DNA of 17,127 nt from the IMG/VR virus record IMGVR_UViG_2713896769_000015; one strand, given 5' to 3'. The position numbers and the translations under genes are program-made. The notes below the pieces were generated by a model. It was given only the letters and a program-made list of their open reading frames with translations, searched no databases and was not told where the DNA came from. Within the stretch, counting starts at the first letter, position 1. Each line of letters begins with the position of its first letter. This stretch comes from a virus. Lineage: Duplodnaviria > Heunggongvirae > Uroviricota > Caudoviricetes. Positions 2,639-5,119 of this stretch are shown one piece after another.

Positions 2639-2710
2639 TGTAGTGGCACACTAAATTTGGCCACCTGATGAAAGGTGATATTCTCACCACAACACAAAAC
2701 AGGTGACTTA

Positions 2711-2982
2711 ATGAACAAGAAAACCAAACGAACCTTCACCCCTGAGTTCAGGCTGGAATGTGCACAGCTGATTGTTGATAAGGGCTACTCATATCGACAG
2801 GCCAGTGAAGCGATGAATGTCGGTTCAACCACGCTTGAGAGCTGGGTACGCCAGCTCAGGCGAGAGCGCCAGGGTATTACGCCCTCTGCCACACCCATTA
2901 CTCCAGACCAGCAACGTATCCGCGAGCTGGAAAAGCAAGTTCGCCGTCTGGAGGAACAAAATACGATATTAAAAAAGGCTAC
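2711..2982 (+). pseudogene. IS3-family transposase orfA (HTH DNA-binding part), interrupted by IS30; its last codons resume at 4206-4245
   Basis: SD aggtga at 2701-2706, ATG at 2711. [55 protein letters not shown]...[22 protein letters not shown] resembles IS911 OrfA. Slippery A AAA AAG at 2971-2977. With IS30 removed the frame continues ...[16 protein letters not shown]. The track ORF 2675-3088 reads on into the IS30 left end. Confidence 0.8.
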
Positions 2983-4203
2983 TGTAGATTCAATTGGTCA
3001 ACGCAACAGTTATGTGAAAACATGGGGTTGCGGAGGTTTTTTGAATGAGACGAACATTTACAGCAGAGGAAAAAGCCTCTGTTTTTGAACTATGGAAGAA
3101 CGGAACAGGCTTCAGTGAAATAGCGAATATCCTGGGTTCAAAACCCGGAACGATCTTCACTATGTTAAGGGATACTGGCGGCATAAAACCCCATGAGCGT
3201 AAGCGGGCTGTAGCTCACCTGACACTGTCTGAGCGCGAGGAGATACGAGCTGGTTTGTCAGCCAAAATGAGCATTCGTGCGATAGCTACTGCGCTGAATC
3301 GCAGTCCTTCGACGATCTCACGTGAAGTTCAGCGTAATCGGGGCAGACGCTATTACAAAGCTGTTGATGCTAATAACCGAGCCAACAGAATGGCGAAAAG
3401 GCCAAAACCGTGCTTACTGGATCAAAATTTACCATTGCGAAAGCTTGTTCTGGAAAAGCTGGAGATGAAATGGTCTCCAGAGCAAATATCAGGATGGTTA
3501 AGGCGAACAAAACCACGTCAAAAAACGCTGCGAATATCACCTGAGACAATTTATAAAACGCTGTACTTTCGTAGCCGTGAAGCGCTACACCACCTGAATA
3601 TACAGCATCTGCGACGGTCGCATAGCCTTCGCCATGGCAGGCGTCATACCCGCAAAGGCGAAAGAGGTACGATTAACATAGTGAACGGAACACCAATTCA
3701 CGAACGTTCCCGAAATATCGATAACAGACGCTCTCTGGGGCATTGGGAGGGCGATTTAGTCTCAGGTACAAAAAACTCTCATATAGCCACACTTGTAGAC
3801 CGAAAATCACGTTATACGATCATCCTCAGACTCAGGGGCAAAGATTCTGTCTCAGTAAATCAGGCTCTTACCGACAAATTCCTGAGTTTACCGTCAGAAC
3901 TCAGAAAATCACTGACATGGGACAGAGGAATGGAACTGGCCAGACATCTAGAATTTACTGTCAGCACCGGCGTTAAAGTTTACTTCTGCGATCCTCAGAG
4001 TCCTTGGCAGCGGGGAACAAATGAGAACACAAATGGGCTAATTCGGCAGTACTTTCCTAAAAAGACATGTCTTGCCCAATATACTCAACATGAACTAGAT
4101 CTGGTTGCTGCTCAGCTAAACAACAGACCGAGAAAGACACTGAAGTTCAAAACACCGAAAGAGATAATTGAAAGGGGTGTTGCATTGACAGATTGAATCT
4201 ACA
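2983..4203 (+). mobile_element. IS30, complete 1221-bp copy nested inside the IS3-family element
   Basis: Left end TGTAGATTCAATTGGTCAACGCAACAG at 2983 and right end ...GTTGCATTGACAGATTGAATCTACA at 4203 form the IS30 terminal inverted repeats. Flanked by a 2-bp direct repeat AC (2981-2982 and 4204-4205), the duplication size expected for IS30. Confidence 0.95.
3045..4196 (+). CDS. insI: IS30 transposase (DDE, 383 aa)
   Basis: 383 aa, [46 protein letters not shown]...[26 protein letters not shown]...; matches the IS30 transposase as I recall it. ATG is at nucleotide 63 of the element. Confidence 0.95.
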
Positions 4204-4205
4204 AC

Positions 4206-5111
4206 CGCGCTCTTAATGTCCGACTCGCTGAACGGTTCACGATAGCCGCCAGACTAAGTGACAGCCACACGGTTGTCAGCCTGTGTTCTGCTCTGGAAAT
4301 ACACCGCAGCAGTTACCGGTACTGGCGAAAACGACGCGATACGGTTAATCCGGCACGAGTCAGGTTGTGCAGCGAAATACGCCGGGCGTGGAACCAAAGT
4401 CGGGGCTCTGCGGGCGCGCGCACTCTGGCTGAAATGCTGACTCAAAACGGCGTCCCGATGAGCCGTTACCGTGCCGGACGTCTGATGAAATATCTGAACC
4501 TGAGCAGTTGTCAGCCCGGAAAACATCAGTATAAAAATGCCCGTCAGGAGCATACCAGCCTGCCGAATCTGCTTGAGCGTCAGTTCGCAGTACCGGAGCC
4601 AGACCGGGTATGGTGTGGAGATATTACGTATCTCTGGGCAGGAAATCGCTGGTGCTATCTGGCGGTTGTTATGGATCTTTTTGCCCGCAGGGTTATCGGC
4701 TGGAGTCTGTCAGCGCATGCCGATACCGCACTGATAAGCAGTGCCCTGCGGATGGCCTATGAGACGCGTGGCCAACCCCGGGATGTCGTGTTCCATAGCG
4801 ACCAGGGAAGCCAGTATACAGGCCTTAAATATCAACAACTTCTCTGGCGTTGCAGAATAAATCAAAGCGTCAGTCGGCGGGGAAACTGCTGGGATAACAG
4901 CCCCATGGAACGCTTCTTCCGCAGTCTGAAAACAGAATGGGTGCCAACGAATGGTTACGCAGGCAAGGACGAGGCCCGGCAGCAAATTAATGATTACATA
5001 TTGAACTACTACAACAGCGTCAGACCTCACCATTATAACGGTGGGCTGACGCCGGAAGAGTCAGAGAACAGATACCATTTTTACTGTAAAACCGTGGCCA
5101 ATATTACTTGA
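4206..5111 (+). CDS. IS3-family transposase orfB reading frame (DDE catalytic domain), now separated from orfA and its frameshift site by IS30
   Basis: Frame is open from 4206 to the TGA at 5109-5111 and is the -1 frame relative to orfA once IS30 is removed. Contains ...[33 protein letters not shown]...HSDQGSQYT...[20 protein letters not shown]..., the D, D, E region typical of IS3-family OrfB. The track entry 4365-5111 begins at an internal TTG. Confidence 0.8.
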
Positions 5112-5119
5112 CCACTACA

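Follow-up and report, generated by a model that had tools for sequence, protein, structure and literature searches.

Why does a copy of IS30 lie directly beside the frameshift site of another insertion sequence (IS), and was this position reached by accident or chosen by its sequence? The question is raised by a 17,127-nucleotide (nt) stretch of a virus of the Caudoviricetes (IMG/VR record IMGVR_UViG_2713896769_000015), the whole of which is called the window below. In the window, a complete IS30 is inserted into an ISEc31-like element of the IS3 family, and this outer element in turn interrupts the tail terminator gene U of a lambdoid prophage. A preliminary description of the window had recorded the nesting and placed IS30 5 nt after the A AAA AAG slippery heptamer. 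In this study, we found that the site is not an accidental one but a recurrent target of IS30. The locus very probably arose by a two-step nested insertion, in which IS30 came in by hot-spot transposition at a site chosen by its sequence.

Structure of the nested insertion

The nested unit, made up of the outer element and IS30, is 2481 bp long and has the following features.

2639-5119, plus strand: outer IS3-family element, 1258 bp without IS30 and one AC, with TG...CA ends and a GCC duplication
2639-2982, plus strand: left arm of the outer element, with the left inverted repeat (IRL) at 2639-2664, the orfA start at 2711, the heptamer at 2971-2977 and the left AC at 2981-2982
2711-3088, plus strand: orfA as now read, 91 native codons and 34 foreign codons from the IS30 left end (125 aa vs 103)
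2971-2977, plus strand: A AAA AAG slippery heptamer (AAAAAAG), which is also part of the IS30 target half-site TTAAAAAAGGCT, as seen in the frame check, half-site logo and matrix test
2983-4203, plus strand: complete IS30, 1221 bp, 100% identical to annotated IS30 copies
2983-3008 and 4178-4203: terminal inverted repeats of IS30, found independently by a repeat finder
3045-4196, plus strand: IS30 transposase open reading frame (ORF), 383 aa, with HTH_38 and rve domains
4206-5119, plus strand: right arm of the outer element, with the displaced orfB at 4206-5111 (rve catalytic domain) and the right inverted repeat (IRR) at 5094-5119

The inner element has the length, the 26-bp inverted repeats (IRs), the single ORF with helix-turn-helix (HTH) and DDE (rve) domains and the 2-bp duplication of IS30. 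It begins with TGTAGATTCAATTGG and ends with CAGATTGAATCTACA, and its 26-nt terminal repeats are imperfect, with 88% complementarity in the repeat finder. A domain search of the transposase gave HTH_38 at E = 1.6e-23 and rve at E = 4.1e-14. One copy of AC lies on each side of IS30, at 2981-2982 and 4204-4205. The alignment to IS30 called for in the preliminary description gave a full-length match, 100% over 1221 bp, to E. coli copies labelled 'IS30-like element IS30 family transposase'; three mismatches separate the element from IS30A of K-12. All coordinates previously given for IS30 and its AC duplication agreed with our reading and with a scripted check, as did those of the outer element and its GCC duplication.

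The outer element reads TGTAGTGG from 2639 and CCACTACA to 5119. Its imperfect IRs agree at 20 of 26 positions when counted by hand, and GCC is present on both sides (2636-2638 and 5120-5122). IS30 divides the element into arms of 344 bp and 914 bp, and the right arm is annotated in E. coli DEC9B as 'IS3 family transposase, missing N-terminus'. When IS30 and one AC were removed in silico, a 1258-bp element was obtained that encodes an OrfA of 103 aa and, by -1 frameshifting, an OrfAB of 392 aa with HTH_Tnp_1 (E = 1.9e-15), HTH_21 (E = 1.5e-8) and rve (E = 5.3e-27) domains. The restored element thus combines the TG...CA ends, imperfect IRs and 3-bp duplication of the IS3 family with an OrfAB that has an HTH/leucine-zipper region and a DDE (rve) domain. 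The overlap of orfA and orfB in the 0 and -1 frames with the slippery site is present only after this excision and is destroyed in the window. The excision had been proposed as a check, and its product showed 0 mismatches in 1258 positions to a natural intact copy in E. coli OkiPb01717, which the Prokaryotic Genome Annotation Pipeline (PGAP) labels 'IS3 family transposase, programmed frameshift'. Copies identical to the restored element are common in E. coli.

The insertion point matches an IS30 target

IS30 is known to transpose by a copy-out-paste-in route via an IR-IR junction and to use two classes of target, near-palindromic hot spots and its own IRs; insertion at hot spots yields 2-bp duplications (PMC9333248). 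In the window, the sequence around the duplicated pair, ATATTAAAAAAGGCT[AC]CGCGCTCTTAAT, is close to the near-palindromic IS30 target, and the slippery-site segment of the 40-bp target window of the outer element is TTAAAAAAGGC. Since the target is unlike the IS30 IR and a 2-bp duplication is present, insertion beside an IS30-like IR, the other mode of IS30, was rejected, and hot-spot insertion is indicated. De-duplicated flanks of IS30 gave the half-site logo T-AAAAAA-N-G-C-N-[NN].

We then scored the site with a target matrix trained only on 39 non-IS3 flanks and scanned over the IS30-free window, so that the test was non-circular; the matrix is an empirical one and not the published 24-bp consensus. 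The true site ranked first among 15,870 positions, with 20.2 bits against 12.3 for the runner-up, and none of 200 matrices from shuffled training scored it as high. The matrix also selected the observed duplicated pair in IS911, in IS600 and in a fourth IS3-family element designated type B.

A comparison is offered by LHS, a natural IS30 hot spot in phage lambda (Olasz et al. 1998, as cited in PMC9333248). There the matrix selected AT at 33290-33291, which is consistent with the boundary given in PMC9333248. The two sites resemble each other in their 2-bp duplication and near-palindromic target, and in both an A-run and then GGC-N directly precede the duplicated pair (AAAAGTGGCG[AT] in lambda, AAAAAAGGCT[AC] in the window). 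With the same matrix the window site scored higher than LHS, 20.2 vs 12.4 bits. Unlike LHS, the window target is part of another mobile element, where it coincides with a translational signal under functional constraint. No literature linking IS3-family frameshift windows to IS30 hot spots was found, in a comparison that lay outside the primary target-specificity paper (Olasz 1998).

IS30 recurs at the frameshift windows of IS3-family elements

In K-12 MG1655, the annotated IS911A is split by IS30A, with ...ATATTAAAAAAGGCTAC before IS30 and ACCGCGCTCTTGATG after it; this interruption is mentioned in the IS30 literature (PMC9333248). In this copy (IS911A::IS30A of the CP4-6 cryptic prophage, insN / insI1 / insO), IS30 is inserted at the homologous nucleotide, 5 nt beyond the A AAA AAG heptamer, and its orientation, the AC duplication and the foreign OrfA tail are all as in the window. 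Between the left arm of K-12 IS911A and that of the window, alignment is restricted to the first 80 bp (80%) and to the 25-bp frameshift window (88%). The host sites differ, and the K-12 copy is right-truncated, whereas the outer element of the window is complete with both ends.

The opposite orientation was searched with a synthetic junction in which IS30 was inverted at the same AC of the outer element. All 240 of 240 matches were in a single piece, 151 genomes carried the junction at a coverage of at least 80%, and the structure was verified in full in E. coli RM10042. The outer 3-bp flanks of the RM10042 copy (2777-5257) are unlike, AAT vs GGT, which suggests a later rearrangement at one end.

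IS30 left ends were also scanned in species-dereplicated genomes (13 loci) and in metagenomes (at least 120 loci). Among the matches listed, 94 of the 130 usable left-end flanks (72%) were one side of an IS3-family frameshift window, and of the 3654 complete E. coli genomes in which an IS30 left end occurs, 3122 (85%) had at least one such end adjoining an IS3-type window; these percentages count copies and genomes, not events, because junctions are inherited. The adjoining windows belong to IS911, the outer element, IS600 and type B, the last of which is labelled in RefSeq merely as 'IS3 family transposase'. In IS600 and type B, IS30 was found at the same offset from TTAAAAAA and in both orientations. 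The duplicated pair in the sampled IS3-type junctions lay invariably 11-12 nt after the TT of TTAAAAAA. A safe minimum is about eight independent events, that is, four elements in two orientations each, in addition to the U locus with both of its states.

Many IS30 copies have unlike flanks that come from two IS3-family windows, as at a locus of E. coli ECDA1023 and at many metagenome loci. In one such hybrid, the left flank is the slippery side of IS600 and the right flank is that of IS911 in reverse complement, without a shared 2-bp duplication. These flanks look like the result of recombination between IS30 copies in different IS3 elements, and those in metagenomes could be due to assembly chimerism.

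Order of the two insertions

The preliminary description had taken the duplications as proof that the outer element entered U before IS30 did. The duplications alone are insufficient for this, as they show only that IS30 entered an IS3-type element and not that the outer element already resided in U. The order itself stood once U alleles were searched with the insertion from which IS30 had been removed. The IS30-free insertion was present without interruption in four genomes (OkiPb01717, CAU16175, PEC240 and AUSMDU00014361), and the insertion split by IS30 was found in four others (DEC9B, 7_33_46A, F2_407_2_2 and Z1323PEC0008). The IS30-free allele of OkiPb01717 lies at the same nucleotide of U and is flanked by the same GCC as in the window. 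Because such alleles exist, the locus is most simply read as having received the outer element first and IS30 later.

The claim that the outer element is immobile in cis was a fair inference: since OrfAB cannot be made, as described below, the element very probably does not move by its own transposase. This needs to be qualified by the intact outer ends and by a nested unit in tssC of E. coli JNEC-KY175, which has its own 3-bp duplication (GAA/GAA) and through which mobilisation in trans appears possible. No IS30-free allele at this tssC site was found among 5426 genomes, and the case can be explained by an intermediate that escaped sampling or by mobilisation of the composite in trans. IS30-free copies of the element in tssC (H9 and others) lie at a different position of the gene, and tssC was rejected as a second two-state locus.

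Alternative explanations

According to the sequence of events that we favour, the 1258-bp ISEc31-like element would have entered the tail terminator gene U with duplication of GCC, and IS30 would then have entered this element in its hot-spot mode. By the biochemical pathway taken from published IS30 work, a circle junction formed in copy-out-paste-in transposition would attack the target with a 2-bp stagger and so give the AC duplication. The site would have been selected by its sequence, since the frameshift window closely resembles the half-site T-AAAAAA-N-GC-N before the duplicated pair. The outcome is the loss of OrfAB and an OrfA with a foreign 34-residue tail, while gene U, and so probably tail completion, is still broken. 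Two points weigh against this explanation. The right half of the target fits only moderately, contributing 7.5 of the 20.2 bits, and the samples are not independent, as many junctions were inherited, so that the 72% and 85% overstate the hits. The same moderate right half could be held in favour of chance, by which IS30 inserted at random into the 1258-bp element and came to lie beside the slippery site by accident, and one nested copy alone cannot separate chance from targeting. However, the homologous nucleotide was used in K-12 IS911A, the opposite orientation occurs at the same AC of the same element, IS600 and the fourth element were entered at the same offset, and the site is ranked first by a matrix that was trained without IS3 windows. 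Chance is therefore extremely improbable.

It is also conceivable that the 2481-bp unit was assembled elsewhere and entered U whole, mobilised in trans by the OrfAB of an intact copy. The outer element has kept both of its ends, and the same nested unit, ends included, is present on chromosomes and plasmids at many unrelated sites, including the tssC site of JNEC-KY175 with its own duplication and no IS30-free allele. This explanation has to contend with the IS30-free U alleles of the four genomes, with the same GCC and 0 differences in 1258 positions, which are most simply the ancestor. IS911-type transposases act preferentially in cis, and on balance entry as a composite is very unlikely. 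A resident copy in U could instead have gained IS30 from a nested copy by homologous recombination or gene conversion, without a new transposition. In E. coli, the identical element is commonly found with IS30 inside it (66 genomes with the orientation of the window), arms of 344 bp and 914 bp are long enough for RecA-dependent exchange, and the hybrid flanks show that exchange among these repeats happens. Yet such an exchange merely moves the question, as the first nested copy still requires a targeted insertion; it also leaves unexplained both the use of two orientations and the use of elements whose homology is limited to about 25 bp. We consider it an unlikely origin of the U allele, and targeted two-step insertion is retained as the best explanation.

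Effect of IS30 on OrfA and OrfAB

In the orfA frame (ATG at 2711), the heptamer at 2971-2977 is read as A AAA AAG, and the frame check gave a spacing of exactly 5 nt, GCTAC, from the heptamer to IS30, as previously noted. A -1 slip on the heptamer now enters IS30 and terminates after 23 codons. With the start of orfB 1223 bp 3' of the slippery site, the OrfAB transposase can no longer be produced. The separation of orfA from orfB and the loss of OrfAB, both claimed in the preliminary description, thus follow directly from the sequence, and the loss of transposition in cis is the likely consequence.

The insertion may also have removed a downstream sequence that stimulates frameshifting, as the preliminary description assumed. 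IS911 has a three-way-junction stimulator downstream of its frameshift site; in the outer element this structure is unsupported, as the predicted basal helix holds two A·C mismatches and there is no thermodynamic signal. The restored downstream RNA (125 nt) folded no better than shuffled sequences (z = 0.05). A consensus fold of seven relatives had an energy of -5.4 kcal/mol and almost no covariation, with a weak conserved long-range helix. The 5' strand of the weak predicted basal helix begins immediately after AC, and its strands are GCGCUCUUAAUG and CACCGCAGCAGU. A downstream stimulator was thus not established by thermodynamic folding of the restored sequence or by comparative folding of the seven relatives.

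The segment 2978-3102, which spans the IS30 left end and the start of the transposase ORF, folded far better than shuffled sequences (z = -3.75), and its fold contains a hairpin of 8 bp (about 3062-3083) a short way into the IS30 ORF. At the other end of IS30, the transposase ORF and the displaced orfB share one reading frame: the former stops at TGA (4194-4196), and the latter picks up at 4206, once ATC TAC AAC has been passed. Read-through of this stop would join the IS30 transposase to the displaced orfB product. The shared frame is probably a one-in-three coincidence. It would hold for every nested copy of the same orientation because the geometry of the hot spot is fixed.

Frameshift windows as landing sites of IS30

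Nested IS elements are ordinary, IS911A::IS30A of K-12 is already annotated, and hot-spot targeting by IS30 is established. What the window adds is that the target preference of IS30 coincides with a translational recoding signal of another family. The frameshift window is hard for IS3-family elements to mutate without loss of transposase. Because of this coincidence, IS30 repeatedly disables IS3-family elements at a place where their sequence is not freely changeable. The pattern explains the run of annotations 'transposase, missing C-terminus', then IS30, then 'IS3 family transposase, missing N-terminus', and it also explains hybrid IS30 flanks that mark recombination between nested copies.

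A broader proposal, which we regard as tentative and rather doubtful, is that the programmed-frameshift windows of IS3-family elements are the main natural landing site of IS30 in enterobacteria. The landing-site data fit such a preference, with four elements, both orientations, 72% of the IS30 ends among the matches listed and the top rank in the window. If it were true, IS3-family elements would serve IS30 as a harmless 'safe haven' and as a multi-copy, plasmid-borne vehicle, and IS30 would be a systematic natural inactivator of IS911, ISEc31-like elements, IS600 and related elements. The data fit a preference that was selected for as well as one that is a by-product of the IS30 half-site. 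The window itself holds a dead insertion sequence in a dead prophage gene, and its main use would be to mark strains and to give annotators a clean example.

Identity of the outer element

The outer element had been described as IS911-like, which was right for its type or subgroup but not for its name. By sequence comparison it appears closest to ISEc31, an element of 1258 bp annotated by PGAP in E. coli O55:H7 DEC5B, with 92.7% nucleotide identity over the full length without gaps. The two are alike in length, end sequences and frameshift organisation. They diverge by 7.3%, and PGAP names copies identical to the outer element merely 'IS3 family transposase'. The isoform convention in ISfinder practice is about 95%, and the identity to ISEc31 falls below it. 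Compared with IS911A of K-12, OrfA shows 61% and the N-terminus of OrfB 51% amino acid identity, and the DNA is mostly unalignable; the outer element was accordingly rejected as IS911 itself. The element that serves as the IS3-family reference for -1 frameshifting, IS911 of Shigella dysenteriae, has the same slippery heptamer; an ATT triplet a short way upstream of it in the -1 frame, the C-terminal end of OrfA, the domain order and the 3-bp duplication are shared as well. The outer element is therefore best described as of IS911 type.

The ISEc31-like element was repeatedly annotated within lambdoid morphogenesis genes (U, tail assembly protein T, FI, head-tail joining protein and S49 peptidase), and two different tssC sites carry it as well. 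ISEc31 itself lies in V of DEC5B; it had first been taken as near U, and its position in V makes it an unrelated insertion. The clustering in such genes could reflect a target preference or mere survival in dispensable genes. In the tssC copy of E. coli 13KWH46 (1501-2945), the left end is partly duplicated in tandem over 187 bp, with IRL at both 1501 and 1688, and the unit measures 1445 bp with TTA/TTA flanks.

Gene U and the prophage

The window is the minus-strand late region of a lambdoid prophage, with genes for lysozyme, Rz, Rha, Nu1, terminase, portal, capsid, U, V, G/T and tape measure. Gene U is present as two fragments.

2558-2638, minus strand: C-terminal fragment of gene U (tail terminator), 26 codons and stop, with the left GCC at 2636-2638; restored by joining 2638 to 5123
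5120-5437, minus strand: N-terminal fragment of gene U, 106 codons, with the right GCC at 5120-5122; Pfam Phage_tail_U

When the outer element and one GCC were removed, a gpU-like protein of 131 aa was obtained. The N-terminal fragment matched Phage_tail_U at model positions 1-109 of 130 (E = 1.7e-46). The earlier naming of the interrupted gene as U is correct because of these two results, and DEC9B is annotated with gpU fragments on either side of the outer element. A defect of the phage would be expected from the interruption.

The window and DEC9B are 99.47% identical over 14.2 kb. Compared with OkiPb01717, with which it has the U insertion in common, the window shows 97.75% identity on the left of IS30 (1-2982) and 99.79% on the right (4204-8420). 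As judged from these alignments, the differing identity around the common insertion indicates prophage mosaicism. The window also contains a 19-nt inverted repeat with 95% complementarity (15187-15205 and 16308-16326), the arms of which are 1102 nt apart, one within the Rha-like gene and the other within the lysozyme gene; this repeat may be due to chance.

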